From positions 61,932 to 125,931 of IMG/VR virus record IMGVR_UViG_3300021431_000086: DNA of 64,000 bases; one strand, given 5' to 3'. A program made the position numbers and the translations under genes. Origin of the DNA: a virus (lineage: Duplodnaviria; Caudoviricetes). Shown here piece after piece: positions 7,382 through 64,000 of the stretch. The notes beneath the pieces are model-generated. The model saw only the letters and a list, made by a program, of their open reading frames with translations, was not told where the DNA came from and ran no database searches. Position 1 is the first letter of the stretch. Every line of letters begins with the position of its first letter.

Positions 7382-10300
7382 ATGGAACATCTTTCTCTCG
7401 AGATATTCGACCGCGAAGGAACGGGAAGTAAGTACGCCTGGCTGCCTGAGGATGCCAGCATCACCATCACCGACACCAGTGAGATATTCGCCAGCGGAGA
7501 TGTATGGTCGCATAGCTTTTCTCTGAATATTCCTGCCAATGTCCACATCTTCGGTACCAGCGGTGATCTGCATGGATCCCGTCTGCACGATCAAATCAAC
7601 AAACGAAAGGCACGGCTGTGGGTGGAAGGCTTACCGCTTTATATGGGTTATCTCATGCTGGACGATGAAGTTGACGTGGATGAGAACGGTAATGTTGACG
7701 TAAGGTTTGAGAGCGGCAATAAGACTTTCGATGAAATGATTAAGGGTACAAAAGCCAGGGAGGTGAGCGTCGGCGACGTGGTAATTGGCGTGGCACTGAA
7801 CCGTAAAAGAGTCGTAGGAATCAAAAGACCATGCGGAGTATTTAGGCTTGATGGCCTTGCTGCGTATGTGGCAAAGAATCATCACCATGAAGGGCTGGAC
7901 GGATATTTTTGTTATTTTAGTGTAGGGAAGTATGACGAATGGGTAAGAACCCCTTACGCTCAACGCTGGCCGAAACTTGTGAAAAGCCATGGAAATATAT
8001 ATGACAGCAATGGTATCGCTGAAAATAAGGATTATACTAATGTCCAGATGCCCTACGATGCAGGGCATCCGTTCTGTAATATCAACATCTGCTATCCATT
8101 AAAGGCAACGAAAATTACGGATGGACAGTCGGAGGAAGTTGCCGGTCGTGGCTATACCATTCGTCTTGCACATGGAACCGCAACCACTGATGGCGGAGAT
8201 CGCCAGACACGTTTCAACAACTCGCCCAATTTCTATCTGCTGCATTTTGTTGACAGACTTTTCAAAGACCTTGGAATACACGTCGCAGAAAATCAGGCCC
8301 TGAACGTGGAAGACCTGCGACGTGTATTTATGCTTAACTACGGTTGCCACTACGAAGAGATTGAGGATGAGTATGAAGATGACGAGATGGACAGCCATGC
8401 CACTCCGAGAAAGAAGGTTGGACGATATGGTCAGTTTTATTTGCCACTTATTCAAACCGGGTCAGGCCGTGCCGGTGGTTATCTGCCTGTAGCTGGATGG
8501 GAAAATGCAGGGAAGCAGGTTCTTGCGGACGAAGAAATAATAGGCAAGGCACTGTTGCGAGATTTGGTTTTAAAAGAGAGGGGCAGTGTCATTCAAAATT
8601 TTGGATCTGTTGAGTGCCGGATTGCAACAGCACAATCCAATATTCCATCCTTCCCGTTTGAAGGTGGGTTGCAGTTTGAACTTATAAAAGATGAGCATGA
8701 GGAGGAAACAGGCGGATACTCTGCCTACCTCGCTTATGCTACGGGGGAAAACTACCCAAATGTGGAGATAAGCGAGATTGTCAACGCCATGAAGTCAATG
8801 TTCGGCATACGCCTTATTTTCGATAGTGATTATTCAACAGTTCGCATAGTTCTGCTTCGCAACATACTCCGAAATAGCGATGTACAGCACATTAACTGCG
8901 ATGTCCTCCCTGCGATTAAACAAGAGAATAACATACGCGGTTTCCGCATGACATACGGGAAGGGAAGCGACAGCACGAGCTTCTATTATAAGGGGTTTGC
9001 CGACTTGTTCGTCCGAAGTGCAAAGATATGGAAGGACACAACCGACAAGCACGATTACTCAAAATGGAACCTTGATGCGGACTATGATATTATCAATTCG
9101 CAGGTTTCTGCCTTTAACAAGACATGCTATGTCACTCCGGTGAACGGAAATGCCTATGGTGTACAGGTCGATGAGGATGAAGATGTACTTTTCCCATCTC
9201 TGTTCGAGTGGGCAGGGTTTATGGATGCCGAGGACGGCGACTGTTCCGGAGCGGATGAAACCGTCGAGGAAATACAGTGTGTGGCTGCACCAGTTATAAT
9301 GAACGAAATTAATGGGACATACGCTTCGCTGTTCGACAGCGATCTGAAAGCACCGTCAGGCGCTGCGCAAAAGATAGGAACTTTTGCCAGGGCAACCTAC
9401 CAGCCTCAGGAACTTACGAACGAAACCGTGTATGCAGGAATGGACATTGCAAGTAACTATACGATATCTGGCAAGCTCGAAATATTCCTTAGCGAAGGAT
9501 TCCAGATCCGTATGCTTGACAACTACGCTATAAGCAACGGCGGCACTCCATTCGACGAGGCGGACCCCGGCCTGTGCTTTGGCATCATGCGCGGAAGCGG
9601 AAGCGATGCCCATGTGAGATATTATGAAGATCAGGATGACGGCGAAGAGAATGATGCGTGGGAAATCGTTCCCGGGAACGGGGCAATTGTACACCCGGAC
9701 ACCTGTGACAGCTACGGGAACGAGTGGGACTATGACGGGGCGACTGGCTATAAGCGTGTCTGTACCAGTCCTGCTGACGCGGTGGAGGCAATGTCTGCCA
9801 TGTTCCCTGATACACACTTTAGTCTTACCACCCGCTCATCCAGCACTTATATGACAGGATTTTTCCTTCCGGCCGTTACCGACAATACGGGAAAATCCCA
9901 CACTTTGCTCATGGCTGGAGCTACTAAGGACCAATCTCCATTGATGCCAGGCATCATGCGTCAACAATACATCAACGACCTACAGGGAAAGAGCATCGAG
10001 CAAATTCTTGAATGGGACACTAATCATTATAACCTACTCATAGAAACTGACAGTTCCAGAGAGAGGGCGCAGACGCTACTTAATCTGCAGAAACTGGCAT
10101 ACTCCAATGGAGGGCCAGTTACCGTGAGTGGTGGAACGGATGTGTCACAGGGACGTTTCTCCCTTAAGCTCCGGGCAGAAAAACTCAACCCGAACTTCGA
10201 TCCGAACAGACCTGAATACAGGACCGTTGAGACCAAGGCCGAAGCGGCAGAGACAATGACTGAAATGTTTGAAGGCTCCAACGCGGATTTACTGAATCGC

Positions 10301-36263: not shown

Positions 36264-36818
36264 ATGCAAACAAAAGAGAATGAAATTTTCAAGCAGATGC
36301 TTGATTGGATTTATGCCAACACCGAAGCTCACAACCAGGCAGATGTAGCCCGTCGTTCAGGACTATTTGAGGCTACCATCTCTCGAGTGTTAAATGGCAG
36401 AATAAAAAAAGTGAAACAAGAAACACTAAGAAAAGTCAATTCTGCATTCGACAACGTGTTCAACCCAGCATGGCTTCGTGGCGATAGTGACGTGATGCTC
36501 ACAGCAGATTTGCAACCCTCAGCAACACATTCCGACACCGACGCACCAGCTGGCTTTTCCGATATGGTAAACTCACCAGACCATTCAAGCCTTGTCAACG
36601 CCGCCCTCGCCGCAAAAGAAGAAACCATAGAATCGCTAAAGCGTGAACTGACCACAAAGGACGAAACCGTAACTGCACTTCGCGACCAGCTTGCTGACAA
36701 GGAGCGCTATATCCTTGCTCTTCAGCAGCAACTCCGTGAACTCCACACGCAGGAGCACCCCCAAAAAGAAATCTCACATGGCTGCTCCTACCACATGGGA
36801 GTTGCTGAACCTGAATAA
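36264..36818 (+). CDS. XRE-family HTH repressor with C-terminal coiled coil
   Basis: NQADVARRSGLFEATISRVLNG HTH; FNPAWLRGD. Confidence 0.85.
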   Translation: MQTKENEIFKQMLDWIYANTEAHNQADVARRSGLFEATISRVLNGRIKKVKQETLRKVNSAFDNVFNPAWLRGDSDVMLTADLQPSATHSDTDAPAGFSDMVNSPDHSSLVNAALAAKEETIESLKRELTTKDETVTALRDQLADKERYILALQQQLRELHTQEHPQKEISHGCSYHMGVAEPE

Positions 36819-36900
36819 TCCAAGCCAAACAATAAAACAAAACCCCTCGCCATGAAGCCAGGGGGTTCTGTTTGGGGTCGAGGCTACTTTGCGATACCTC

Positions 36901-39921: not shown

Positions 39922-40067
39922 GCCCCAGCGGTTGAGCACCGTGCCCGGCGGTTCTCCGTCGGGCCTCTCCCTCCCCGGAGCGGGCGGCGCATCGCCGCCG
40001 CCCCCTCCACTTTTCTCAATCATCGTCATGTATGCTGCGATGACATCGCAGCCCAAATAAAACAACT

Positions 40068-40487
40068 ATGGAAAATCTCCGCCAATACGACATCATGCCG
40101 GAACCGCTGCGCAAGTACCTTGCTCAGTACGGCCACCACTTTTCAAAGCCACTCTGCGACTACGCCGTGTCCCTTATGAAGAAAGCAGGACCAGACGGGA
40201 AACCGCAAGCCATCACGCCAATGACGCGCGAGGAAGTAGAGAACCTCCTCAAAACAAACGGCGTAGAGTTGAAAAACAACGTCCTCTACGACCACGTGTT
40301 TGTCGCCAATATGGTAAAGTCCGACCAACTCGGCTCCAGCGTCCCAGATGCCAAGCATCACGCCCTCGCCATCCGCGACTACATAGATGACATCGACAAG
40401 GCCGAAGGCTATATCTTCGACCGCTGGATGTCCGACCTTTGCGGCCTCGGCCCAAAATATATCCCTTATTGGGAAGACATGATATAG
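40068..40487 (+). CDS. Hypothetical helical protein
   Basis: 139 aa; YG.HFSK.LC.YAVS.M and DYIDDID. Confidence 0.75.
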   Translation: MENLRQYDIMPEPLRKYLAQYGHHFSKPLCDYAVSLMKKAGPDGKPQAITPMTREEVENLLKTNGVELKNNVLYDHVFVANMVKSDQLGSSVPDAKHHALAIRDYIDDIDKAEGYIFDRWMSDLCGLGPKYIPYWEDMI

Positions 40488-40587
40488 ATTTACGATTTGA
40501 CGATTTACAAATTACCAACCGCAAGTAAATCGTCAAATAATCAAATCGTAAATAAATAGTAAATTGCAAATTGGCAAATCGTAAATG
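40488..40587. repeat. Inverted arrays of ~8-bp ATTTACG/CGTAAAT repeats (REP-like hairpin)
   Basis: atttacgatttgacgatttac ... gtaaatcgtcaaat...aaatcgtaaat. Confidence 0.6.
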
Positions 40588-40971
40588 ATAAGGGATTATC
40601 TCGACATAGACTCCCACTGGGGCATCCTCGCTTATTACGATGCCACCCCTTCCGACTTCTCACAGCTCGGCCCCATTCTCCGTGAGTTCGGTTGTCCTGA
40701 GCAGGAAATCGAAAAAGCATGGCACACCCTCCACCGTCCCAACAAAGCCTTCGTGTGGAACGCGCCCTGGACACGCATGTCTGTCATGGTCGTCTCGCCC
40801 GTCACTCATCCTGCTCAGTTCCTCAACAGCTTCATGCACGAGACCGATCACCTGCAGGATGCCATTCTCTCCTATTACCGCGTTCCGCAAGGTACTGAGG
40901 ATGCCGCCTACCTTCAAGGCTACATCGGGCAGATAGCCTATGATGCCATCTTGCCCTTGCTATGCCCTTAG
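40585..40971 (+). CDS. HExxH (zincin-like) small protein
   Basis: FMHETDHL plus downstream EDAAYLQG. Confidence 0.65.
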   Translation: MIRDYLDIDSHWGILAYYDATPSDFSQLGPILREFGCPEQEIEKAWHTLHRPNKAFVWNAPWTRMSVMVVSPVTHPAQFLNSFMHETDHLQDAILSYYRVPQGTEDAAYLQGYIGQIAYDAILPLLCP

Positions 40972-41002
40972 TGCGCTTTGCGGTGTCCCCACAAAGATTC
41001 CC

Positions 41003-41037
41003 TGCCCTTGATTTTTTCCCTGTATTTTGCGATTTTG
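41003..41037 (+). promoter_or_regulatory. Late-promoter motif copy
   Basis: TGCCCTTGA-N23-TTG ending 13 nt before the ATG at 41051. Confidence 0.6.
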
Positions 41038-41050
41038 TCGCAAAAAAGAT

Positions 41051-41533
41051 ATGAACAACTGCAAAGAATTTATCCTCGATGACGTGATGGCTATCACCGC
41101 CATCCCCGTCACCGATTTCTTCCCCAGCACAGCCACCTGGCAACTTACGCCCACCATAGAAGCCGACCTCTTCTCCCCTAACCTCACCAACGCAATCACC
41201 ATCGGCCTTCAAGCCGCCACGACTGGCGCCACACTCATCCCCATCATGCGCAAGACAGGCAAAGCCAAGGATGACGAGTCTGACAGTACCGCAGGCCGCC
41301 TCCATACCGTCACCGTCACATGCGAAGCCGACGACCGCGACCTGTCCGTATGGAACGACCTTCTCTCCCTGGAGCGCACAACATCCCACCTCCTTCTCAC
41401 CTTCCGCGACCAGAGCCGCGCTTTCGTCCAAGCCACTGAGGACACCTACCTCTGTAACGTAGAACGCGACGGAAGCAAAACCTCCGTCGCATTCCAGGTG
41501 CAAAACATCATGGGCATCCAGATGATAGTGTAA
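41051..41533 (+). CDS. Beta-rich hypothetical protein, possibly structural
   Basis: 160 aa from ATG 41051, preceded by the late motif. Confidence 0.6.
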   Translation: MNNCKEFILDDVMAITAIPVTDFFPSTATWQLTPTIEADLFSPNLTNAITIGLQAATTGATLIPIMRKTGKAKDDESDSTAGRLHTVTVTCEADDRDLSVWNDLLSLERTTSHLLLTFRDQSRAFVQATEDTYLCNVERDGSKTSVAFQVQNIMGIQMIV

Positions 41534-41580
41534 CCACTGCGCTTGCGATTTTTCACTCTTCACTTCCCTTTCAGCCAACA

Positions 41581-41700
41581 CAACAGCTTTTCGCACTCCG
41601 CAACCACTCTCCGCAGGAGAGCCCCCAAAAAGACTTTTCACGTGGCTATTCCTACCCCTTGGGAGTTGCTGAACGGGGACAAAACGCAGCCGAGCCCTAA
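41581..41700 (+). pseudogene. Remnant 3' end of a paralogous repressor gene
   Basis: 41612-41674 is 53/63 identical to 36748-36810; QESPQKDFSRGYSYPLGVAE vs QEHPQKEISHGCSYHMGVAE. Confidence 0.75.
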
Positions 41701-41702
41701 AA

Positions 41703-41795
41703 CAAAAACCGCCCCTCGCTATCACAGCGAAGGACGGCAAAACTCAAAATCACTATAGTTATGAAAACTATGGTGTGCTTTCACGCGCACACGCA
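41703..41795 (-). ncRNA. Candidate 3'-end sRNA B with anti-translation-start sequence and terminator
   Basis: Two hairpins, AUAGUGAUUUUGAGUUUUG, then GCCGTCCTTCGCT-GTGAT-AGCGAGGGGCGG-TTTTT. Confidence 0.55.
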
Positions 41796-41815
41796 CGTTA
41801 TGTATATAGGTAATG

Positions 41816-42304
41816 TCATTGATTATATGGTGTCACCTTCATGTCGAAATCCGTTCCGTTGTACCTTTCGACCACAAATCGCACGTAACCCTTCCCCGAT
41901 TTTAAGTACTTTATGATTTTGCGGATGTCCTTTCGCCCGAACATATAGTAATCGGCGGTCGCTATGTATTGCCCCATGTGATTATCCTCTGGCAGGAGAT
42001 GCACTGTCACCATTTTCTGCATATTCCCTTGTTCGTCGTAAAATCCTGCCTTGACCGGAACAAATACAGAACCAGAAGAAACCCACGTCCTGAACATTCC
42101 TTTCTCGGTGATAAGCCGGAAATCCGCTTTATCCCAGTCCCAGATAACCATAGAGCCAACTCCTGCGACATCATAAATATACACATCCTTGGCTTCCTGC
42201 CCCTTCATAGGGTCGGCCTCACGATGCGAAACATTCCACACTCCCTGTGCGCTTGCTGTCAGCACCGCTAACAGCATCAGCGCGATTGTCAATAACTTCT
42301 TCAT
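41816..42304 (-). CDS. Secreted hypothetical protein
   Basis: Sec signal MKKLLTIALMLLAVLTASA. Confidence 0.7.
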   Translation of the reverse strand: MKKLLTIALMLLAVLTASAQGVWNVSHREADPMKGQEAKDVYIYDVAGVGSMVIWDWDKADFRLITEKGMFRTWVSSGSVFVPVKAGFYDEQGNMQKMVTVHLLPEDNHMGQYIATADYYMFGRKDIRKIIKYLKSGKGYVRFVVERYNGTDFDMKVTPYNQ

Positions 42305-42419
42305 AGTTGTTTCAGATTTTATTTGTCATTATTCATTTTTTACGACCCAAAGCAGACCGTTGCCAACTCATTGGGATGTACGTCCAGTTGCTCAAATAGT
42401 TTCATAGTCGTTATTTGTT

Positions 42420-42791
42420 TTAGTGATACATTTTTCCTACAATCCCGTCGTTAAGGTCCTGCCAGATTTTTACCTCGCGCTCATCTTCACGGGTCAAAGA
42501 ATTAAACTCAATGCCGTCGATGCTGTAGAACATAGCCTTGTCACCAATGCCATACCCGGACATACGGATGCGCAGACTGTTGCTTGGGAGCTTGGGACAA
42601 TCCGTCTTATAGATGGTCAATCTATTTCGACTTTGCCAATGCCCTTTCATTATTCCTACATACACACTGCCGTCGTATGGTTTTAATCCACACTCTTGAT
42701 AGTATGTTTCCAGAAATTGCCTTATTCCTTCCTCCGTAATCGCATCGCGATTATTCAGTAAGGCAATCAGTTTATCTTTGAGCTTTCCCAT
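42420..42791 (-). CDS. Hypothetical protein
   Basis: 123 aa. Confidence 0.6.
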   Translation of the reverse strand: MGKLKDKLIALLNNRDAITEEGIRQFLETYYQECGLKPYDGSVYVGIMKGHWQSRNRLTIYKTDCPKLPSNSLRIRMSGYGIGDKAMFYSIDGIEFNSLTREDEREVKIWQDLNDGIVGKMYH

Positions 42792-42845
42792 AATACTTTC
42801 TTGCTATTATTCGTTTTATTCGTTCAATTTATACTGCACTCAAAT

Positions 42846-42892
42846 TCCCGTAACACTGCACACAAATTTCTGTTTGCGTGCAGTGTTACGGA
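42846..42892. repeat. Long intergenic palindrome
   Basis: ccgtaacactgcac.caaa / tttg.gtgcagtgttacgg. Confidence 0.7.
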
Positions 42893-43067
42893 ATTTTCAT
42901 TCGCGCCTCACTTCCCCTTCAGCCACGCCAATAGCAGGATGATGGCCAGAATCCAGTTCTCGCCCGTGCTGTCCTCGCCGCCGGCGGAGCAGGATGCCAC
43001 ACAGAGGATAACGAGGAAGATGACTACACACAGACTGATGATACTTTCTTTCATAGTTGTTATGGTT

Positions 43068-43244
43068 TTACCAGTGTTTTACCAATTTGCCAATCTCGTC
43101 ATAGAGGTCCATGCAGATGAGTACGGGCACCGCATCGGATACATGCTCAGCCGCCGCAATAGCCTCTTGGTCATTCTGCGCCTCTATGGTTCTCTCCACC
43201 GACATCGGTGCCAGTTCAGAGAGCATGGATAGTTTGTAGGTCAT
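43068..43244 (-). CDS. Small hypothetical protein
   Basis: 58 aa, packed. Confidence 0.5.
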   Translation of the reverse strand: MTYKLSMLSELAPMSVERTIEAQNDQEAIAAAEHVSDAVPVLICMDLYDEIGKLVKHW

Positions 43245-43246
43245 AA

Positions 43247-43738
43247 TCAGAAGATTCTCAAAGCTCCGCTCGGACACCATGCCGTACCATACTGCCGGTC
43301 AATTTCGGCAAGGTACTTCTCGATGTCCGAGTTCAGTTGCTCCAGTTCATCATAGATGCGGGAGTATTCCTCGTTCCACTTCTCCTGCCATTCATCGGTG
43401 CCCGACTCCGGCCAGTCTTCAATCTCCAGCAGCTCGTCGATGTCGTCGATGTCGATATAGTCGCCATCGCCCGTCGGGATGCAGGGGACTGGCGTCAGTC
43501 CGCTTTCCTTGATGGCAGCATTAGCCACCACCAGTTGCGCCTTGATGCGCAGGTCATCGGAGCGCGTCACGGCGTCCATGTTTGTGTGCAGTTCGTGACG
43601 CAGACGGCACAGGTCGGAGATGAGTCCCGCCTGTTCCTCCGTCATCCCGTGCTCAACGGCCACCACCTCATTGTCGGCATTCCTACGCTCCGCACTCTCG
43701 CGGCGATAAGCGTATTGTTCCTTATTCAAGTATGCCAT
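43247..43738 (-). CDS. Acidic hypothetical protein
   Basis: 163 aa. Confidence 0.7.
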   Translation of the reverse strand: MAYLNKEQYAYRRESAERRNADNEVVAVEHGMTEEQAGLISDLCRLRHELHTNMDAVTRSDDLRIKAQLVVANAAIKESGLTPVPCIPTGDGDYIDIDDIDELLEIEDWPESGTDEWQEKWNEEYSRIYDELEQLNSDIEKYLAEIDRQYGTAWCPSGALRIF

Positions 43739-43756
43739 AACAAGTCCTCCTTTCTT

Positions 43757-44500
43757 TTAGATTTCACCATTGCGTTTCCACTCTTCCCACTTCTCCACGC
43801 TGTATCCATCGTCGGTCTTTACGCCGAGGAAGGTGCAGTCGTAGCCCTTGGAGGTCATTTCTGCACATGATTGCAACACACCCCAGTCACCACGGTGTCT
43901 CATACGGCTCGTTTCAAGTTCTTCGGGGTGTTCCCTGATGTAGTTGCGAGCCTTGTCATAGGCATCAGCCCCACTGTTGGCAATCACATTGCCCTCGAAG
44001 GTAGTGTCCTCAAAATAGTCGTTGCCATGACTGGCGAATACATATATTGTCAGTTCGAGTTCCACATGCCACCAGCCCTTTTTCGGCTCCATGAGTTCTG
44101 CCATGCGGCGCTGCTTGGCTTCCTCTGCCAGTCGCAGACGCTCCTTACGCGCTGCCTCGCGACGCTCGTTGTAGATGCGTTCATGCTCCTCGATAGTGTC
44201 GGCCAGGGCCGGATGGAAAACAATATCCCACGCTCCGCAGCCGGTGGTGCGGAAGCCGGCGTAGGTGCGAGGCACACCTCTGGGATCGGTGCCGAAGCCG
44301 TCGCGGAACAGGTCGCGGATTTTCTCTGCCGTCCGCTCGTTCACCACGATGCAGTCCGTCGATGTCTTCCTGCCGTAGGTCTTCCAGGTGTTGATGACTG
44401 CAATAGCCTCTTCTGCTGTGTGTGCTATTGCCTTGTAGGGAATGTAGGTGTTCCCGTTGTTGGCACGTCCGCCATAGGTAATGCAAAATACGTTTGCCAT
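43757..44500 (-). CDS. Hypothetical protein
   Basis: 247 aa. Confidence 0.7.
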   Translation of the reverse strand: MANVFCITYGGRANNGNTYIPYKAIAHTAEEAIAVINTWKTYGRKTSTDCIVVNERTAEKIRDLFRDGFGTDPRGVPRTYAGFRTTGCGAWDIVFHPALADTIEEHERIYNERREAARKERLRLAEEAKQRRMAELMEPKKGWWHVELELTIYVFASHGNDYFEDTTFEGNVIANSGADAYDKARNYIREHPEELETSRMRHRGDWGVLQSCAEMTSKGYDCTFLGVKTDDGYSVEKWEEWKRNGEI

Positions 44501-44788
44501 AATGTTTAACTGTTTAACCGATCAGTCCGGGGTCTTAAACTGTGATTACTTGTTGTAGCGTTTGCAAATTTCGTGTTTTATCTCGATATAGACAAGCGCT
44601 TTGACGTTTTATTTGCCATTCTGTGTTGCAGAACATATTCTAAGCCCTCCTGCTGGAGGTCATTCTCCTGTTATTGACTACAGCCAACAGATACAATGCC
44701 CCAAACAGGGCCGTTATCATACACATTTCCATGATGTCATTCATAGGTCTCATTTTTTAATTCATAATTCATAATGCACAATGCACAA

Positions 44789-44977
44789 TTATTCAGCATG
44801 TTTCACAATCTTCAGCCCGGCGGGGTAGAACGTGTCGAAGCCGTCGAAGGCTTCCTCCGTGTCCTCGATGGTGAAGTCATAGAGTGTGCCGTCCTCGTCC
44901 TCCACGAGGATTTCGGCTTCCGGCTCCAGCTCCGCTGCGCGTTCCTGAAGGCGGTCGATGAATTTGTAGATGTTCAT
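44789..44977 (-). CDS. Small very acidic protein
   Basis: 62 aa, D/E-rich. Confidence 0.6.
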   Translation of the reverse strand: MNIYKFIDRLQERAAELEPEAEILVEDEDGTLYDFTIEDTEEAFDGFDTFYPAGLKIVKHAE

Positions 44978-47199: not shown

Positions 47200-47475
47200 T
47201 TATAGTTTATTTCCGTTTCTGTCATACAGACGAATAGGATTACCATTATTGTCGTGTAAGCTGCCGTCTGGCTCCACTACAACAATTGGTGGAAGGAAAC
47301 CATACCTCCTACTTATTTCGATTTGCTTACCAAAGGTCAGTTGCTTTGCCTCTATTACAGCTTCTTCGAGAGTGACACAATAGTGCATCTCTCTCGATGT
47401 CCTTCTCCATTTTTTTCCATCAGACAACTTCATTTCCCGACCTCCATTGTCTAAAAAAAAGTAATTCCATGCCAT
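47200..47475 (-). CDS. Hypothetical protein
   Basis: 91 aa. Confidence 0.55.
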   Translation of the reverse strand: MAWNYFFLDNGGREMKLSDGKKWRRTSREMHYCVTLEEAVIEAKQLTFGKQIEISRRYGFLPPIVVVEPDGSLHDNNGNPIRLYDRNGNKL

Positions 47476-47486
47476 AATCGTTTTTG

Positions 47487-47663
47487 TTATTGGTTAATTC
47501 TCTCTCCTGTCCTACGGTCGATGTAGCACTCACAAATGGTGTCGAAAGGTCCCGCATCGCGCTCTTTATGTGAACAATAGTAACTGTGGTAGCCAGTACA
47601 TCCAAAGTGTTGACAATCCTCGCAAGTTGCTTTGACACCAGGGAAAAATGTTGCTTTATTCAT
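47487..47663 (-). CDS. Small Cys-rich protein
   Basis: CEDCQHF...C...CEC. Confidence 0.5.
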   Translation of the reverse strand: MNKATFFPGVKATCEDCQHFGCTGYHSYYCSHKERDAGPFDTICECYIDRRTGERINQ

Positions 47664-48419: not shown

Positions 48420-50147
48420 TTAAGCCACTTTCTCGAAGAAATCGCGCCAGTCGTCAACGCCTTTGCCCTTGTCCTGATAGATAGGCCATGCGTGGTTTGC
48501 GTTTCCGCTCTCGTTGGTAATAAAACCCAAGGAATAACCATGTTCCCGTTCGGAACGGTACACCATATCCTTGCGGTACGCCATTGTTCCATCACTGTAT
48601 TTCACATCCTTCTTACAGCGGAATAGGTCGCCCTTGTCGATGCGGGGAATAAGTTTCGATGGAGACTGCTGCCAACCGTCGCCCTTCTTGGGCAGTGTCC
48701 AGCCCTTTGTCTTGGCAACTTCGGCATTGAACTTATACCACACGTCCTCGTCCAGGAACTCGAAGTGCATAGTGCCCTTCTTGAACGCCTTGCAGCGGAA
48801 GAAGCCCCAGATAAACCAAGTGTTCCATGCGGCACGCTGGCCACCATAACCACCTGGCAGTGAAGAAATCTCGTTGTAGTCGCGCCCAGTCAGATAGCAC
48901 AACGCCTTGCAGACATCGCACATCTTCTCTACACTGGAACCGCTGACTTTCACATACTCGCGCCCTACCCTCTTTTTCGCCATGCTCCATGCCGAAGTCC
49001 CCGTATATTCCCAGTCGTAGCCGTCGCACATACAGGGAATGATAAACTTGCGGTTGACCATGTAGTTCGCATTCGTCTTCCATGTCTCGCCAGCCGTGGA
49101 GTTCTCAGCACTGAAAGAACAGATGTGCTCGAAGGCCTCAATCAGCGCTTTGTGCATCCGCTGCCCGTGAGTCTGCACAATCATGTCGAGCACCCTGTAG
49201 ATGTTACCCATCGTGAAAGGCACGTTCACCTGTTTCTCCACAAAGCGGTTCATCTGCTCACGCAGCGATTGTGTCTCATACTTCCCCATCTTCAGCATCT
49301 GGAAGATGGTGCGCCAATAGTATTTCTTCAGTTCCTTCTTGTACTCCTCGCGAGAGACGGTAGTTGCACGACCATCACGAGACTCTACGGCACGAAACTC
49401 AATAGGTGGTGTATCATGCTTTCCATCCGTTGCCCGTGCCGTATCATTGATGCGCTGCGTCATCTCCATCACCTCGTTAAACATCTTCACGGCACTCATG
49501 TAGCGGTTCACCATTTCGCGTACAACATTGTGCTGTACCAGACCTTCGGTATCATTCATGTTCAGCACGTCCTCGTCCTGCTGGCTGAACATATAGTCCT
49601 GCCATTCCTCTTCGCCTGTGCCCTCCTTATAGAGCTTTACCAGCGCCACCTCCACGCTCGTCTTGCGCTCGGCGGTCTCAAACACCTTGCCCAGACACTC
49701 CGTGTAGCCATAGAGCTGTATGTTTTCGTACAGGATTTTGTTGCGGCTGTAGCTGTGATATTCACTCACACTGTCATCGTTGCATAGTGCAATCACTACA
49801 CATCCCGGAGGTGCAATCTCGAAAGCGTGAAGGATATGCTCGGCGCCCTTCGAGAAAGGCGGATTCATCACAATCATATCCACGTGACTCACCTGCTCGC
49901 TCGTTACCGTCAGGAAGTCGTCAGCCACCAGCCGACACTTGTCAGCCAATAGTTTCCTACAATGCGGGTCGTTCTCGCAGGCAATCACCTCCGCCGCACC
50001 GTTCTCCTTCAGCCAGTCAACGATGTTGCCACTGCCAGCACTCGGTTCCAGAATAATTTTGCCAGCCACGTCTTCGCCCATCATCATCTGCTCGATAACC
50101 TCCTTGGGTGTAGGATAGAAATCGGGGTTATTCGTAAATAAGTTCAT
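48420..50147 (-). CDS. N6-adenine-type methyltransferase with DUF4942-like C-terminal domain
   Basis: DFYPTP, ILEPSAGSGNI, MNPPF; C-terminal WGFFRCKAFKKGTMHFEF. Confidence 0.8.
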   Translation of the reverse strand: MNLFTNNPDFYPTPKEVIEQMMMGEDVAGKIILEPSAGSGNIVDWLKENGAAEVIACENDPHCRKLLADKCRLVADDFLTVTSEQVSHVDMIVMNPPFSKGAEHILHAFEIAPPGCVVIALCNDDSVSEYHSYSRNKILYENIQLYGYTECLGKVFETAERKTSVEVALVKLYKEGTGEEEWQDYMFSQQDEDVLNMNDTEGLVQHNVVREMVNRYMSAVKMFNEVMEMTQRINDTARATDGKHDTPPIEFRAVESRDGRATTVSREEYKKELKKYYWRTIFQMLKMGKYETQSLREQMNRFVEKQVNVPFTMGNIYRVLDMIVQTHGQRMHKALIEAFEHICSFSAENSTAGETWKTNANYMVNRKFIIPCMCDGYDWEYTGTSAWSMAKKRVGREYVKVSGSSVEKMCDVCKALCYLTGRDYNEISSLPGGYGGQRAAWNTWFIWGFFRCKAFKKGTMHFEFLDEDVWYKFNAEVAKTKGWTLPKKGDGWQQSPSKLIPRIDKGDLFRCKKDVKYSDGTMAYRKDMVYRSEREHGYSLGFITNESGNANHAWPIYQDKGKGVDDWRDFFEKVA

Positions 50148-50188
50148 AGTATTTTTGAGTTTTGGTGTTAGTCTGTTTAATCCGTTGT

Positions 50189-50395
50189 TCACTCCGCCAT
50201 GCGCCAGCGGACGTTTTTGTTAGGGTCGGCCCCTCGCTCACAGGCGATGGCAAAGGCATCGTCGAGGTTGTCGCGGAAGGGCTTCGCAGGGTCAATCGTA
50301 TGCTCCAGTGTGCGCACCTCGAAGGTGGTCTTGCAGTAGTTCCCCAGCCCGTACTCGCGGCGGGGCACCTGATACTGCAGGATGATGTGTTCCAT
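50189..50395 (-). CDS. Hypothetical protein
   Basis: 68 aa. Confidence 0.6.
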   Translation of the reverse strand: MEHIILQYQVPRREYGLGNYCKTTFEVRTLEHTIDPAKPFRDNLDDAFAIACERGADPNKNVRWRMAE

Positions 50396-50414
50396 AGTGA
50401 TTGAGTTTTTGTTT

Positions 50415-50464: not shown

Positions 50465-51079
50465 CTACGCCGCCGCTGGCAGAGGGTAGAACTTACGTTG
50501 GCAGTAGTCGCTACCCTTATAGAGTTCGTCCTGCGAGTTAAAGCCTACGCCGTGGAAGATATAGTCCACTTCCTGCACAGCTCCTGCCGTCCATACGGGC
50601 ACGCCTTTCTTACTCTCCATATCCTTGCGGACGGCATCGGCACTCTCACTCATATACAACCACAGCCCCGTCTCGATGTGGTCAAACACGCGGTCGCCCA
50701 CCTTCAGGCGTAGTCCCCACCATATCTGTCCGCAACTGCCACCGTCCTCTTCCACCAATCCGAGGATGTCATAGCCCTTCACGCCGTGCTCCTGCGAGAG
50801 CCGTGCATCGGATGCCTGCCACTCGCGCAGCACCTCCATGACGGCACGTTGGTGCTCGGCACTGCGGCAACGCTTCAGCCCCTCCACCGCCTCTGTCAAA
50901 CGGCTTTTGAATCCGTACATACCATTGTTGACAAACATTTCCTGCCCGTCCTCCCATCGCAGGGAATAGTCCGTCGTACCGGCCCACTTGCCTGTACAGG
51001 GGCTGCCAACCTTTGTCCATGACTTGTGGCCCATCAGGGCACACATCTCGTCGCACAATGCTTTTGTTTCCTTATCCAT
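50465..51079 (-). CDS. Hypothetical protein
   Basis: 204 aa. Confidence 0.7.
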   Translation of the reverse strand: MDKETKALCDEMCALMGHKSWTKVGSPCTGKWAGTTDYSLRWEDGQEMFVNNGMYGFKSRLTEAVEGLKRCRSAEHQRAVMEVLREWQASDARLSQEHGVKGYDILGLVEEDGGSCGQIWWGLRLKVGDRVFDHIETGLWLYMSESADAVRKDMESKKGVPVWTAGAVQEVDYIFHGVGFNSQDELYKGSDYCQRKFYPLPAAA

Positions 51080-51098
51080 AGTGATTTCAGTTTTGTTA

Positions 51099-54270: not shown

Positions 54271-54306
54271 AGTTGTGTCCTCCAATTATGAATTTTGAAT
54301 TGTGAA

Positions 54307-54495
54307 TTATGGATTATAGATGACCGCTTTGCGCTTATCGGCCCGTGTAGCCGGCCGGGTGTCGAAGGGTTCCTTCCCTCGGCTCACCACCACCAGCTCG
54401 CCCCACAGGTCCGGGACGATACACAGCAGCGGGTCGTCCTTCAGCACCACCACCTTTCCGACCAGCAGTGCTGAGTTGATATCTTTCGTTGTCAT
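54307..54495 (-). CDS. Hypothetical protein
   Basis: 62 aa. Confidence 0.55.
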   Translation of the reverse strand: MTTKDINSALLVGKVVVLKDDPLLCIVPDLWGELVVVSRGKEPFDTRPATRADKRKAVIYNP

Positions 54496-54499
54496 AGGC

Positions 54500-54706
54500 T
54501 CAGAATTTCCAGCTATTGTCCGGGTCGTTGGCATAGCAGGCCTTGAAGCCCGCAGGGGTCAGGAACACGATATAGGTGTAGTAGTTGGTATAGTCCATCA
54601 CCTGCGCCTCACGCATCCAGTCGTTGAGTACATCGACGGATGTGCTGTCCGTTTCACACATTTCCCGCAGTGGGCGAAAAGTGTACGTCTGTCCTTGAAT
54701 TTCCAT
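54500..54706 (-). CDS. Hypothetical protein
   Basis: 68 aa. Confidence 0.55.
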   Translation of the reverse strand: MEIQGQTYTFRPLREMCETDSTSVDVLNDWMREAQVMDYTNYYTYIVFLTPAGFKACYANDPDNSWKF

Positions 54707-54777
54707 AGGCGTATATGTTTAGGGTTATTTGTATTTTATAGCCCTCCATTACGGGAGGGCTGGGTAGGTCTTCTCTT

Positions 54778-54906
54778 AAAAAAGACTGCCGCGCTTCACA
54801 ACGCAGCAGCCCGTTCACTCAAAAATTCAAAAGTTATGTTTAGCAACATAATAGTTCCCGCAGTGCCATCAAAGGCATAGGTCGGTGCCACTGCGGGATA
54901 GTTTCA
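54778..54906 (-). ncRNA. Candidate sRNA A with anti-translation-start sequence and terminator
   Basis: -7-like AATCTTTG (54919-54912); hairpins TCCCGCAGTG/CACTGCGGGA and TTATGTT/AACATAA; CAUAACUUUUGAAUUUUUGAGUGA; terminator + U6. Confidence 0.6.
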
Positions 54907-54959
54907 CGATGCAAAGATTCTTCTTTTTCCGTGATTTCAGTGATTCCCGTGTAAGAATT

Positions 54960-57010: not shown

Positions 57011-59242
57011 TCAAGCGGCTAAGAGACGCTTGATATCCTCTGGCACATCGCCGCCGGCCAGCACGTTCTTCAGCATAGCGGCCACGTCCTCCTTCGTATA
57101 GCACTTCTTGGCCTGCTCCTCGGCAGTCTTGGCTGCCTGACGTTCGGCCTTCTTCTCTGCCCACTGCTGCTTTTTCTCCTCCCAGCGGGCCTTGCCGTCG
57201 CGCTGGGCTTGCTCATAGATAGCCATGCAAGCATCCTCGGCGCGGCGCCAGGCATCCACGTCGGCGGTGTTGTAGGCTCCTGCCAGTGCCTTGGCTACGT
57301 CCATGTAGCGGACACCGAACAGCAGGATATAGACCTTGTTGCCGTTCAGGTCGCGGCGGTAGGATGCACTCACGTACTTGTGCCCTGCATCCTTGTGCGT
57401 CTTCCAGCGCGGGTCATCCTCGCCGCCGAAGCCGATAATCTGAGGGGCCGTGTCGCCGCGCTTGGTCTTATAGGTGGAGAACTGCACCTCCGGCAGTCCT
57501 GCGAAGTAGTTCTCTGCTGTCATGGGCACGCTGTCCTCGGCCACCTTGATAGAAGCAATAGCCTGGTTGTTCACTGTGTTAGCACTCTCGTTCTGGGTCA
57601 TGTTCTTCTTTGCCATAGTTGTAGATGATTTTGAGTTGTTGTTTTCTGTTGTTGTTTCGTCGCCGTCCGTACCCGTCGGGGGTACGGTAGGCGTTTCGGT
57701 CTGCTCCACAAAACTCGTGTGGCAGAAGATGCGATGCACGATGGTCTGGGCATACTCGCGGTAGTTGTAGTGTCCGAAGAGTTCACGCTCGAAGCGTCCG
57801 AAGTGCTGCGCCACCTCCTCGGCCTTGCCCTCGAAGTCATACGGCTCATCGTCCACGATGTCCGGCACGATAGCCTTCAGTTTCTCCGTCAATTCGGCTT
57901 TCTTCGCCTCGCTCATCTCGCGGCTTATGCGAATGTCACCCGCCGTGCCACCCATAAACTTCATGGCGAAGTCCGTATGTTCCTCCTTTGTCGTATAGGA
58001 AGAATCCGTCATGCCGTCGAAACAGTCGTGATAGGTCACGAAGATGTCGAGGTCGGTCTTTTCCGCAAATTCCTCCTCCGTAGGTCCGTCCCACCACGTC
58101 AGTTCCCAGTCACCACCCCATCCATGATGCACTTTCAGCGAGAACTTCACACCAGGGAACGCCGTCTGCACCATAGCAAGAATGTTCTTCTTCCTCACAT
58201 TCTGCTCCTTGCGCTGCGCCTGGTCGAAGGCCTTCTTTTCCTTCTCCAGTGCCTTCTTGCGCTCCTTGCCATAGATGCCACGCAATTTCTGGTCAGCCTC
58301 GTAGAGTACATGGTTGGCTTCCTCACGCGCCTTGGTATAGGACGCAATAGGTTCCATCAGATGCTCCCATTTCTCACACTTCTTACGGTATGCCTCCAGC
58401 CTATCCTTATACTCACGTTCCTGCCGTTCCTGTTCCTGGCGGTTACGCTCGTTGTTGCGCTCACGGATAGCCGTCAGCACCTTTTCAAACATTGTGTTCC
58501 ACGTCAGCGGTACGAGAATATATCGGCTGTAACTATAGCCCTCGGTATCAACGATATACCAGCGGTCGCCGCATGCGATAGCCACGCCCAGCGTATAGAA
58601 CGTGCGCTGCTTCCACTCCACCAGCTTGCCATAGTCGCCAAAGGTGCTGCACTCCTCGTCCGTCACGTCGTCGCTGGCAGAGCCATAGTCACCCTCCGTC
58701 AGTTGCTTCACGATGCCCTCCAGCACCTCGGCACTCTTCTGCTCGCTGATAGGGTCGAAGTCCTCCTCCGAGAGCGTGAACACCCTCGTCACTTTCACCA
58801 ACCTTGGCTTCAGTTCCTTCTCGTCGCTATTCTCGCGCTCATACACCATGTACTCCATGTTCGAGATAGCATGGGGCAGACCACCCTCGCACTTCAGTCC
58901 CGAGTCCAGTGCCCACACGAAACTGCCTGCAACGGGTGCCGGCTGTCCGTTCATCACATGCTCGTCGGCCAGCATCGTGTAGCCCTTATAGGCCGACTGC
59001 TCAAACCGCTGCTGCCTGTCCTCCACGATGGCGCGTGCCACCTCCTCAGCCTGTGCGACCATCTCCTTGCCGAAAGCATCGAGATAGGCGGCGCGGGACA
59101 GGGGCGAAAGCCCTGAGCCGTCCCATCCGAAGCAGATAGAGTGATGACCCTCTTCGTTATACTCTGCGGTCATAGCCGCGTTACTGAACACTTCCACCAG
59201 TCTGTCCGACAGGCGGTCCAAAGTCATATTCTTGATTGCCAT
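57011..59242 (-). CDS. Polyvalent-type protein with LPD29-like domain; probable in-frame fusion with a second gene starting at 57616
   Basis: KNILAMVQTAFPGVKFS...LTWWDGPT...FDGMTD; internal start context before MAKKNMT. Confidence 0.65.
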   Translation of the reverse strand: MAIKNMTLDRLSDRLVEVFSNAAMTAEYNEEGHHSICFGWDGSGLSPLSRAAYLDAFGKEMVAQAEEVARAIVEDRQQRFEQSAYKGYTMLADEHVMNGQPAPVAGSFVWALDSGLKCEGGLPHAISNMEYMVYERENSDEKELKPRLVKVTRVFTLSEEDFDPISEQKSAEVLEGIVKQLTEGDYGSASDDVTDEECSTFGDYGKLVEWKQRTFYTLGVAIACGDRWYIVDTEGYSYSRYILVPLTWNTMFEKVLTAIRERNNERNRQEQERQEREYKDRLEAYRKKCEKWEHLMEPIASYTKAREEANHVLYEADQKLRGIYGKERKKALEKEKKAFDQAQRKEQNVRKKNILAMVQTAFPGVKFSLKVHHGWGGDWELTWWDGPTEEEFAEKTDLDIFVTYHDCFDGMTDSSYTTKEEHTDFAMKFMGGTAGDIRISREMSEAKKAELTEKLKAIVPDIVDDEPYDFEGKAEEVAQHFGRFERELFGHYNYREYAQTIVHRIFCHTSFVEQTETPTVPPTGTDGDETTTENNNSKSSTTMAKKNMTQNESANTVNNQAIASIKVAEDSVPMTAENYFAGLPEVQFSTYKTKRGDTAPQIIGFGGEDDPRWKTHKDAGHKYVSASYRRDLNGNKVYILLFGVRYMDVAKALAGAYNTADVDAWRRAEDACMAIYEQAQRDGKARWEEKKQQWAEKKAERQAAKTAEEQAKKCYTKEDVAAMLKNVLAGGDVPEDIKRLLAA

Positions 59243-59267
59243 AGTTGTATGTCGTTTTAGTTGGTTA

Positions 59268-59498
59268 TTACTTTTCTGCCATCCATACGTCACAGATAGC
59301 GATTGTGTGGATATAGTTGCCTTGTGCATCCAGCACGCGGAACTCGTTCTTCAGTTCCGTCTGCTCCAGCCTGCGATCGTCGGGCTTGTGTTCATAGATG
59401 CTTTTCATTGCGCTCTCGAAGGTGGGATATGCCCTGAAGGGCACCATAGTGATGTCGCCGTCCACCTTCTTTCCGACGAAATAGATTTTCTTGCTCAT
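59268..59498 (-). CDS. Hypothetical protein
   Basis: MSKKIYFVG..., 76 aa. Confidence 0.6.
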   Translation of the reverse strand: MSKKIYFVGKKVDGDITMVPFRAYPTFESAMKSIYEHKPDDRRLEQTELKNEFRVLDAQGNYIHTIAICDVWMAEK

Positions 59499-59668: not shown

Positions 59669-61093
59669 TTATGCTTCTCCTTGAAAGTTCAGTTGCGGCA
59701 GTTCTTCCTGTGCGTCCTTCACACAATAGGCTTTCACGTCGTCATAGATGCAGCGCAGCACGTCCACGTCTTGCGTCACGAAGTGTCCGGCATAGTCCTT
59801 CGCCACCTCCTCGAAGGTCAGGTGCGTCTCGTAGCGCAAGATAGAGTCCATTGTTTCATAGTCCATATCCTCGTCGAAGGCCGTATAGGACGATGCCTTG
59901 CGCTTGCGCCTCCGTCCGAAGCCGTACCAGCCATCGTCCCACGCGCTCCATGCGTCCGTGTACTCATGCGGATAGCGGTCGATCAGCGTCGCGCAGATGT
60001 GCCGTGCGAAGTCCAGTGCGTTCTTCAGTTCGCTCCACACGGTACACTCCTGGTCGGTGTGGGGGTTGTAGTAGCCGCACGATATGTTGATGCAACTCAC
60101 CCCCACCCCGTTCTCGCATAGCGTTTCCACGTCGGTCATCAGCCCGTCGGTAGGCTCATAGCCGAACTGCTCATAGCCCAGCGCATCCACGAAGTCCTGC
60201 GAGCAGATAGGCCCAGAGATTTCCGTAATGAGGTCGCCACCGTTCCTGCGGTCAGGTTCGATGCAATAGAGCACGTCCTTGAAGAAGTCCATGTCGGCCT
60301 GACGCGAGCCCACGCATCCCACTTCCTCACCCACGAAGAAGGCACACTTCAGCACGTCGCGCTCGGCCAATAGTTCCAGTGCAATCCACAGCCCGTTCTT
60401 GTCGTCGGCACCGAGTCCCTGCTGTGCCTTAGATTTGGGCGAATAGGCAAAGATGATGTCGTCGTCGTAGATAGTCTCGAAGTCCTCCAACTCGCCACCC
60501 ACATGCAGGTGGAAGCCCGTACACTTGCCGCGGGCGTAGGCAATCCACCGCTCCGTGAAGTCCTCGCACATCCACACCTTCACCTGCTCGGGCAGGATAG
60601 CGCCAAACGGATTCTCGTCGATGAGTCGGCGCATGAACTTACCGGCCTTCATCTTGTAAATCTTGTCATTCTCGCGGTTGCGATAGCGCACGGCCTTGAA
60701 GTCGCCGTCGAAGCACAGACCGCCGTCCATCACCTCATACTGCATCGACTTCAGCCGATAGAGGCAGCCACGCTGTTCCTTGTCATAGAGGAGATAGCAG
60801 TCGGTCGTATAGCCGTCGTAGTTGCCCAGCGGATAGACCTCCGTGTGCATAGCGTCCAGCACAAGCTGGCGCATGTCGGCCATAGACTTCAGAGTATAAA
60901 ACCGCTCCATGAAGGCGCGGACTGTGCGCTGGCCTTTGTTCCACGCCGTAGTGCGCACTGCGTTGACAAACTCGCGGCTCGTCAGCAGAGCCAATAGTAT
61001 CTTGTTGCGGCGACTCTTCACACCGTTTCCATGTTCCTGTATGCCGAAGATTTCCTTGAAACCCTCGTAGCCGTTGAATTGATAGTACAACAT
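59669..61093 (-). CDS. Fusion of a phage hypothetical N-terminus to an N-truncated M28/M20-like Zn peptidase
   Basis: GLGADDKNG, FFVGEEVGCVGS, DRR and NISCGYYNPHT present; the first HxD Zn ligand is not evident. Confidence 0.7.
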   Translation of the reverse strand: MLYYQFNGYEGFKEIFGIQEHGNGVKSRRNKILLALLTSREFVNAVRTTAWNKGQRTVRAFMERFYTLKSMADMRQLVLDAMHTEVYPLGNYDGYTTDCYLLYDKEQRGCLYRLKSMQYEVMDGGLCFDGDFKAVRYRNRENDKIYKMKAGKFMRRLIDENPFGAILPEQVKVWMCEDFTERWIAYARGKCTGFHLHVGGELEDFETIYDDDIIFAYSPKSKAQQGLGADDKNGLWIALELLAERDVLKCAFFVGEEVGCVGSRQADMDFFKDVLYCIEPDRRNGGDLITEISGPICSQDFVDALGYEQFGYEPTDGLMTDVETLCENGVGVSCINISCGYYNPHTDQECTVWSELKNALDFARHICATLIDRYPHEYTDAWSAWDDGWYGFGRRRKRKASSYTAFDEDMDYETMDSILRYETHLTFEEVAKDYAGHFVTQDVDVLRCIYDDVKAYCVKDAQEELPQLNFQGEA

Positions 61094-61127
61094 CGCAATA
61101 GTGATTTTGAGTGTTAGTAATTCGTGT

Positions 61128-62169: not shown

Positions 62170-62213
62170 TTTGAATTTTGAATTGTGAATTATGAATTAT
62201 GAATTATGAATTG
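62170..62213. repeat. Heptamer tandem repeat (TGAATTN)
   Basis: ttgaattttgaattgtgaattatgaattatgaattatgaattg. Confidence 0.8.
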
Positions 62214-63825: not shown

Positions 63826-63870
63826 GGCATTTTCACTATATATTGATATATAATGTACCCGCGCGCGTAT

Positions 63871-64000
63871 GGCGGGGGGTGTCGGGAGGGTGTCGGGGTG
63901 TCGGGAGGGTGTCGGGGTGTCCTGATGATGGCGGGAGGGTGTCGGGGTGTCCTGATGATGGCGGGAGGGTGTCGGGGTGTCCTGATGATGGCGGGAGGGT
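63871..64000 (+). repeat. G-rich tandem repeats (30-bp unit, 3.3 copies, runs off the edge)
   Basis: cgggagggtgtcggggtgtcctgatgatgg at 63902, 63932, 63962 and partial at 63992; shorter units from 63871. Confidence 0.92.

Follow-up and report, generated by a model that had tools for sequence, protein, structure and literature searches.

Several phages are known to carry small RNAs that act by blocking ribosome-binding regions in phage genes, among them C4 of P1 and P7, Sar of P22 and OOP of lambda. C4 derives from the operon that also contains its target, Sar and OOP act as cis-antisense RNAs, and each of these RNAs has one target. In phage T4, many early genes are shut off by the RegA repressor and the RegB endoribonuclease, both acting via a short motif in the initiation region. 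T4-type phages also contain PeSL modules, short conserved boundary sequences with a stem-loop, around which genes are swapped. Another RNA, sRNA2 of PAK_P3, was considered as a parallel for an antisense RNA with multiple start sites and was dropped because its paper does not say so. We know of no characterized regulatory RNA of a Bacteroidota phage, a literature search retrieved none, and little is known about the timing of gene expression in large gut and rumen phages. In Bacteroides thetaiotaomicron, the FopS/GibS RNAs form a multicopy family with related seeds and with targets in polysaccharide utilization; one member, FopS-14, is derived from a 3' end (PMC11697453; PMC7366714). The locus described here, designated element B, is well supported by sequence comparison as a conserved minus-strand RNA element with a selected stretch predicted to be antisense to start sites.

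The window, i.e. the whole 64,000-nt stretch of phage DNA that was analyzed, corresponds, in reverse orientation, to the initial 63,926 bases of contig C50 (125,820 bp), which belongs to a rumen Bacteroidales genome bin of 3.1 Mb. Tandem G-rich repeats (GGGAGGGTGTCGGGGTGTC units with a spacing of 8-19 nt) are located at the window end (63855-63993). The intergenic region at 41534-41815 is flanked by convergent genes, a plus-strand gene ending at 41533 and a minus-strand gene of 162 codons at 41816-42304. A first-pass annotation of the DNA had described two hairpins, a U-rich stretch and a terminator after the last early gene. All of these are present, on the minus strand only: element B occupies 41812-41699 of that strand, 3' of the last minus-strand gene of a leftward early block. 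It recurs in six related phage sequences, namely G119:C8 (13445-13574), G556 (IMG/VR 3300028805_000072; 9299-9426), G557 (IMG/VR 3300021254_000029; 47388-47513), L197, L201 and L203. The related phage contigs measure 96-132 kb, and one carries terminal repeats.

All parts of element B lie on the minus strand. The first is a TATA-rich box (41799-41812), which always precedes hairpin 1, is conserved in eight relatives and is a possible promoter, operator or processing signal. Hairpin 1 (41783-41798) is GC-rich, reads ACGUGC-GUGU-GCGCGU and is a hairpin or a palindrome in all relatives. Hairpin 2 (CACCAUAG...CUAUAGUG; 41751-41775) includes the 5' end of the seed and has an equivalent helix in G556 and G557. 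The seed, AUAGUGAUUUUGAGUUUUG (41738-41756, with a 16-nt core at 41755-41740), is antisense to positions -17 to +2 of a start region that is common to early genes. A terminator hairpin of 14 pairs with the loop GUGAUA (41708-41738; -21 kcal/mol) and the U-tract UUUUUGUUUU (41699-41708) complete an intrinsic terminator.

The minus-strand fold has an energy of -43.7 kcal/mol (z = -3.8). Mismatches in hairpin 1 are wobble-compatible on the minus strand only, and the U·G and G·U pairs of the terminator hairpin become A·C mismatches on the plus strand. A plus-strand reading of element B was rejected, since the hairpin there is weaker, interrupted by mismatches and followed by an A-rich tail with no terminator; thus, the description in the first-pass annotation, and its logic, fits the minus strand. 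On the strand of the RNA itself, the 3' end of B is an intrinsic terminator, as in terminator-ended sRNAs. The seed segment AUUUUGAGUUU is predicted to be unpaired in three of four homologs. The seed part UAGUG is predicted to be paired in hairpin 2, which counts against reading the element as an sRNA. No Bacteroidota -7 promoter box (TAnnTTTG) was recognized upstream of B. Searches with Rfam covariance models gave no match at the gathering score in the window and chance-level matches only (E of 1 or more) in 41600-41900; element B matches neither FopS, GibS, C4 nor other Rfam families.

The last gene of the minus-strand block (41816-42304), of which element B is the 3' UTR, encodes a hypothetical protein of 162 aa with a signal-peptide-like N-terminus; the protein has 62 homolog clusters. 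Exact contigs from three metatranscriptome runs cover 41961-44544 (including 41961-42436) at a depth of 3-7. None of the contigs listed in these runs covers 41700-41810; contigs show neither ends, strand nor level, and this gap therefore says nothing about expression. Pfam and PHROG searches with the flanking genes and the predicted target genes identified only DUF4942, LPD29, DUF7841 and an HTH. On the plus strand, 41612-41700 is a 3'-terminal remnant of a gene for an HTH regulator, paralogous to 36748-36818. Comparison of 41612-41700 with 36748-36864 reveals a duplication, 76% identical over 106 nt, that comprises the HTH gene's 3' end along with the terminator region. In many relatives, the gene for the 162-aa protein is followed by a spacer of 130-195 nt and then by a convergent HTH gene, and orthologs of the HTH gene of the window (36264-36818) face B in G557 and lie near B in G556. 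The remnant marks the ancestral convergent neighbor of element B. Because the HTH gene directly faces B in relatives, the block between the duplicated copies looks inserted: in the window, a 4.7-kb cassette has separated the HTH gene from B, leaving the 3' remnant behind.

The first-pass annotation had also reported a perfect 15-nt match between plus-strand 41742-41756 (ACTCAAAATCACTAT) and the leader of gene 61093. The identity with minus-strand 61112-61098 is exact, and because this leader belongs to a minus-strand gene, a minus-strand RNA from element B is complementary to its mRNA. The near matches that had been quoted for the starts of genes 50395, 51079 and 50147 were likewise recovered. 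Over its full 19 nt (41756-41738), the seed is exactly complementary to the leader of gene 61093 and nearly so to the starts of 51079, 50395, 50147 and 57616. The predicted targets, all on the minus strand, are the leader and ATG of the 474-aa gene 61093 (61091-61112; 15/15 match), the 204-aa gene 51079 (51077-51095; duplex of -22.3 kcal/mol), the 68-aa gene 50395 (50393-50411; -20.7 kcal/mol) and the 575-aa DUF4942 (methyltransferase-associated) gene 50147 (50145-50164). The fifth and weaker predicted target (57614-57643) is a leader-like stretch with an in-frame ATG at 57616 and the seed partner itself at 57624-57643; it lies inside an ORF with an LPD29 domain (57011-59329). This ORF, of 772 codons, contains two leader-like stretches with an in-frame ATG GCA A.. 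AAG AA (57614-57643 and 59237-59269), which may be internal starts or fused genes.

We scanned both strands of the window for duplexes with the seed. Leaving aside the self-match, its five best partners are minus-strand sites, each overlapping a start codon. When the energies of the four best start-site partners are added up, the sum has a z-score of -5.3 relative to 60 shuffled seeds, none of which reaches it. Complementarity begins at about -17 and includes the first two bases, A and U, of the AUG, and the predicted targets are located 8-19 kb upstream of B on the same strand. A similar picture was obtained for G119, G556 and G557, where the best partners of each phage's own seed are same-strand starts 6-21 kb upstream, mostly with the ATG adjoining (G119:C8 was treated as circularly permuted when measuring target distance). 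The corresponding shuffle tests on the sums of the top four duplexes gave z-scores of -3.4 for G119:C8, -6.9 for G556 and -3.6 for G557, with 60 shuffles each and no shuffle reaching the observed value.

The seed matches the consensus of a leader family, CAAAACTCAAAATCACTATG, from which single leaders deviate by one to four bases, and these leaders precede non-orthologous genes. The DUF4942 gene 50147 has an ortholog in G556 (15646; 93% identical) with the same leader. The other genes behind these leaders in the relatives are not orthologous, from which it follows that the leader is a shared module that does not belong to particular genes. A generic start context, …AAAAC.AAAC[GA]ACT ATG, was observed for most phage genes (for example, at the minus-strand starts 42304, 42405, 47663 and 55301), so that a very large number of starts would be compatible with the AUAGU end of the seed. 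The leader family is also represented in a rumen metagenome (L043, Ga0247611_10039346, at about 4311-4329) by a CRISPR spacer, the reverse complement of which is a family leader with the gene start (…CAAAACTCAAAATCACTATGAAAGCTA). This match indicates that a rumen host has been immunized against the start-site module of a related phage.

In six sequences, 16-19 nt of the seed are invariant. It is identical at 19 of 19 positions in the window, G119:C8, G556 and L203, and the 16-nt core is also found in G557; L197 has a variant that is 3 nt shorter (…CUAUGAUUUUGAG…) and finds a perfect 15-bp partner in a CATTATG-type leader. A four-way alignment has 53 unchanged positions out of 121, of which the 16-nt core forms the longest uninterrupted stretch (permutation p = 3.5e-5). 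Around this constant seed, both the flanking hairpins and the terminator have diverged, and the upstream gene is approximately 76% identical in DNA. Among eight sequences, 12 of the 20 predicted pairs in the terminator stem and hairpin 1 (seven of them in hairpin 1) have changed on both sides and are still paired. One U·G pair, which could form on the minus strand alone, persists in six of these eight sequences and is a C·G pair in the remaining two. Because the seed hardly varies, compensatory change between seed and target is not seen for B itself.

Element B is a portable unit: its downstream neighbor varies between phages and the unit stays intact. For example, in G556 it follows a different gene and precedes a gene that runs in the same direction and has a TAnnTTTG promoter. 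Two distant relatives (L198 and L200) have kept the box, the GC hairpin and the terminator and have a different middle region, for which no convincing start-site partner was found in the 10 kb upstream that were searched, a range to be read against the 8-19 kb of the window targets. Element B is absent from L194, L196, L202, L195 and L199, which carry genes related to that for the 162-aa protein. Beyond L198 and L200, there are also relatives with a plain terminator in its place, and the distant phage G555 has no equivalent. A near-identity search of deposited phages with 40000-44000 and a protein-led IMG/VR search with the 162-aa gene produced no match, and an IMG/VR search with the plus-strand gene 41027-41533 identified two relatives with unrelated junctions. 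Exact 19-mer scans of metagenome and genome collections returned, beyond true relatives, chance matches only. An exact 16-mer scan of IMG/VR returned mostly chance matches and one more relative, G557.

We used 184 strictly defined terminators elsewhere in the host bin as a control. None of them shows an identity of at least 12/14 to the antisense-leader motif, TTTTGA precedes only four, and T makes up, on average, 25% of the 26 nt ahead of them. The observation that the first-pass annotation had named as speaking against its proposal, an equal frequency of the motif before terminators in genomes that lack such targets, is thus not borne out in this host. Nor is there any 12-mer match to the leader at the start sites of the host bin. 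In 150 genomes of the genus, a covariance model built from B alone (R1) matched mostly ordinary host terminators of the GCGUCGUGAUGACGC type. Seed-like stretches found by this search in G501, G475 and G499 were rejected, as they have no start-site partners; the G501 copy is a GAPDH 3' UTR.

The same model finds a second element of the window, sRNA A (54778-54919, minus strand), together with its homologs in G119, G556, G557 and G439. In the window, this sister element consists of a -7-type promoter box, a 5' hairpin, the seed CAUAACUUUUGAAUUUUUGAGUG and a terminator. Across the homologs, the box is of the TAnnTTTG type (perfect in G557 and G439), the 5' hairpin is conserved, the seed reads CAUAACUUUUGAAUUUU(U)GAGUG and the terminator is variable. 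A related phage in one DNA run has 88 other letters in place of the 287 nt at 54500-54788, and the break of this replacement is at the end of the terminator of sRNA A.

In the first-pass annotation, A and B were considered a paralogous pair with different target sets and with a GTGA-containing loop in both. The target sets do differ: the best partners of A in the window are the leaders of 63605 and 59498, and those of B are 51079, 50395, 50147, 61093 and 57616. The loop of A does contain GUGA. GUGA and GUGAUG loops are, however, frequent in host terminators of the genus, where they commonly read CGUCGUGAUGACG, and the loop therefore carries no information on the kinship of A and B. Paralogy is uncertain. 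What the two elements have in common is the antisense of related leaders and a host-type terminator with a GNRA-like loop, so that common descent is possible, but their 5' halves are unrelated. In element A, the length of the U-run equals that of the A-run in the orthologous target leader (5/5 in the window and G119, 4/4 in G556). This is the sole covariation between seed and target that was seen, and gene conversion could be an alternative source of it. The 3' UTR of a host GAPDH gene (G501:C10 39379-39435; L105/L114) resembles the seed and terminator of A, with 84% identity across 61 nt. This likeness, present in one of 179 genomes of the genus, could reflect phage-host exchange or a host decoy.

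The explanation that we favor, and in which we place about half of our confidence, is that element B is an anti-start-site regulatory RNA that represses the translation of a set of early genes. Minus strand 41812-41699 would encode a structured RNA of about 110 nt that ends the leftward early block; it would be either a 3' UTR, belonging to the transcript of the 162-aa gene, or a small transcript of its own starting from the TATA-rich box. Its U-rich stretch would be exposed between hairpin 2 and the terminator and, together with the 3' arm of hairpin 2, would form the antisense of the A/C-rich leader and of the A and U of the start codon. By pairing in trans with early-gene start regions, the RNA would cover the unstructured A-rich ribosome landing site, which is the Bacteroidota substitute for the Shine-Dalgarno sequence, and would thereby reduce translation of that subset of genes. 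Duplex-directed cleavage may be an added effect. Encoded at the far end of the block, the RNA would accumulate after its targets have been made. Delayed negative feedback, as proposed in the first-pass annotation, may be the consequence. We infer such accumulation, pairing in vivo and repression as the outcome from the arrangement and complementarity described above.

The same complementarity could have another origin. The leader family is a repeated, recombining junction module, and an antisense stretch could therefore derive from an inverted copy that is kept uniform via gene conversion. According to this alternative, which we regard as rather unlikely, B is the intrinsic terminator of the operon and nothing else, and its antisense stretch is an inverted copy of the leader module that arose by recombination, is kept uniform by gene conversion and has no role in a regulatory RNA. 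Copies of the leader module precede non-orthologous genes and are found in either orientation, the flanks of B have been swapped between phages, and B is dispensable in some relatives. Furthermore, 44751-44790 is complementary to 62174-62213 and to 54284-54314 with no terminator nearby. Considered by itself, this third antisense-leader, located away from terminators, is the G/U-rich leader of a 37-codon membrane-type minus-strand ORF and is 74-91% complementary over 31-40 nt to the two A/C-rich minus-strand leaders. An unselected relic, however, would be expected to decay no more slowly than the working leaders, and B is the best-conserved copy and equals the leader consensus. An inverted copy is also a poor substrate for productive recombination with sense copies. 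Finally, the seed is always separated by 0-3 nt from a covarying terminator and preceded by two conserved hairpins, and the same arrangement is present independently in element A.

Conservation of the scaffold raises a further alternative. The box, the GC hairpin and the terminator are conserved further than the seed (L198 and L200), and B is syntenic with the convergent HTH gene. The box and hairpin together make up a motif of about 35 nt (ACCTATATA.ATAACGTGCG.GCGCGTGA) that is present in exactly two copies in each of four phage genomes. One of the two stands at the head of element B (41799-41775 in the window). The other is located at about 76975 of C50 (outside the window), 67703 of G119:C8, 90532 of G556 and 1649 of G557; it lies at the 3' end of a 421-codon ORF, which in C50 belongs to the other half of the contig, and there it precedes a 594-codon gene. 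The motif may be a phage-specific promoter, a processing site or an operator to which the adjacent HTH protein binds; an RNA hairpin is slightly favored, since only on the minus strand are the mismatches compatible with wobble pairing. These features would suit a real sRNA, or a protein-bound 3' UTR, that functions through protein binding, host mRNAs or processing and stability without pairing with start sites, or a box and palindrome that serve as operator DNA for the HTH protein. The RbpB protein of Bacteroides, which binds single-stranded regions of sRNAs (PMC11697453), would be in line with the protein-binding version. We consider this group of explanations quite improbable. Start sites of the host bin lack even a 12-mer match; protein binding does not require 19 nt of complementarity to phage starts in four phages; and the operator idea covers the 5' motif, not the seed.

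It is very improbable that the plus-strand copy is the working leader of a small plus-strand gene (ATG at 41761, 51 aa) or one half of a type I toxin-antitoxin pair: an ATG 4 nt after plus-strand ACTCAAAATCACTAT does open a 51-codon frame, and the G556 copy likewise has an ATG after it, but G119 has none at that site (ACTATCGTTAGC), the frame is broken by +2/-2 indels between the window and G556, the ORF overlaps the 162-aa gene in antisense by 100 nt and has its distal part in unrelated genes elsewhere, the 51-aa peptide is not hydrophobic, and no conserved small hydrophobic ORF was found opposite the RNA.

Taking B as an anti-start-site RNA, we tentatively suggest a broader scheme, which is possible and on balance doubtful: A and B together would constitute an RNA-based global shut-off of early-gene translation in rumen Bacteroidales phages of about 126 kb, each being antisense to a different variant of the start module. 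Of the two, A has a canonical Bacteroidota promoter, and B is positioned where the early block ends, next to a convergent HTH regulator. Within this scheme, synthesis of B may be gated via the motif of TATA-rich box and palindrome that occurs twice per genome in the four phages. Many early genes would then be provided with one interchangeable start-site module that is controlled by one or two antisense RNAs. Such a design would account for the strong conservation of the junction modules, and it would tie gene shuffling to regulation. It would also allow sRNA control of Shine-Dalgarno-independent initiation to be tested directly and would provide a compact and portable pair of repressor and target for Bacteroidales genetics.

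Among the systems introduced above, the FopS/GibS RNAs pair with translation initiation regions, as is proposed for element B, in a host phylum without Hfq or Shine-Dalgarno-led initiation. They are chromosomal and have their seed at the 5' end, whereas B is phage-borne and antisense to the start motif of the phage's own genes. In contrast to C4, Sar and OOP, with one target each, the single trans-acting seed of B fits four or five start sites. One seed that fits a start-site module common to several of the phage's own genes is new among FopS/GibS-type RNAs and phage immunity RNAs. The sense leaders of this phage behave like PeSL modules. Unlike these modules, which sit in the same orientation at gene starts and supply the next gene with a promoter or leader, B is inverted relative to the leader copies, is present as a single copy, ends transcription and contains two further conserved hairpins. 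The comparison with RegA and RegB of T4 differs in the nature of the recognizer, which is a protein there and would be an RNA here; if the proposed shut-off by A and B is true, the two elements would represent an RNA counterpart of the T4 system.
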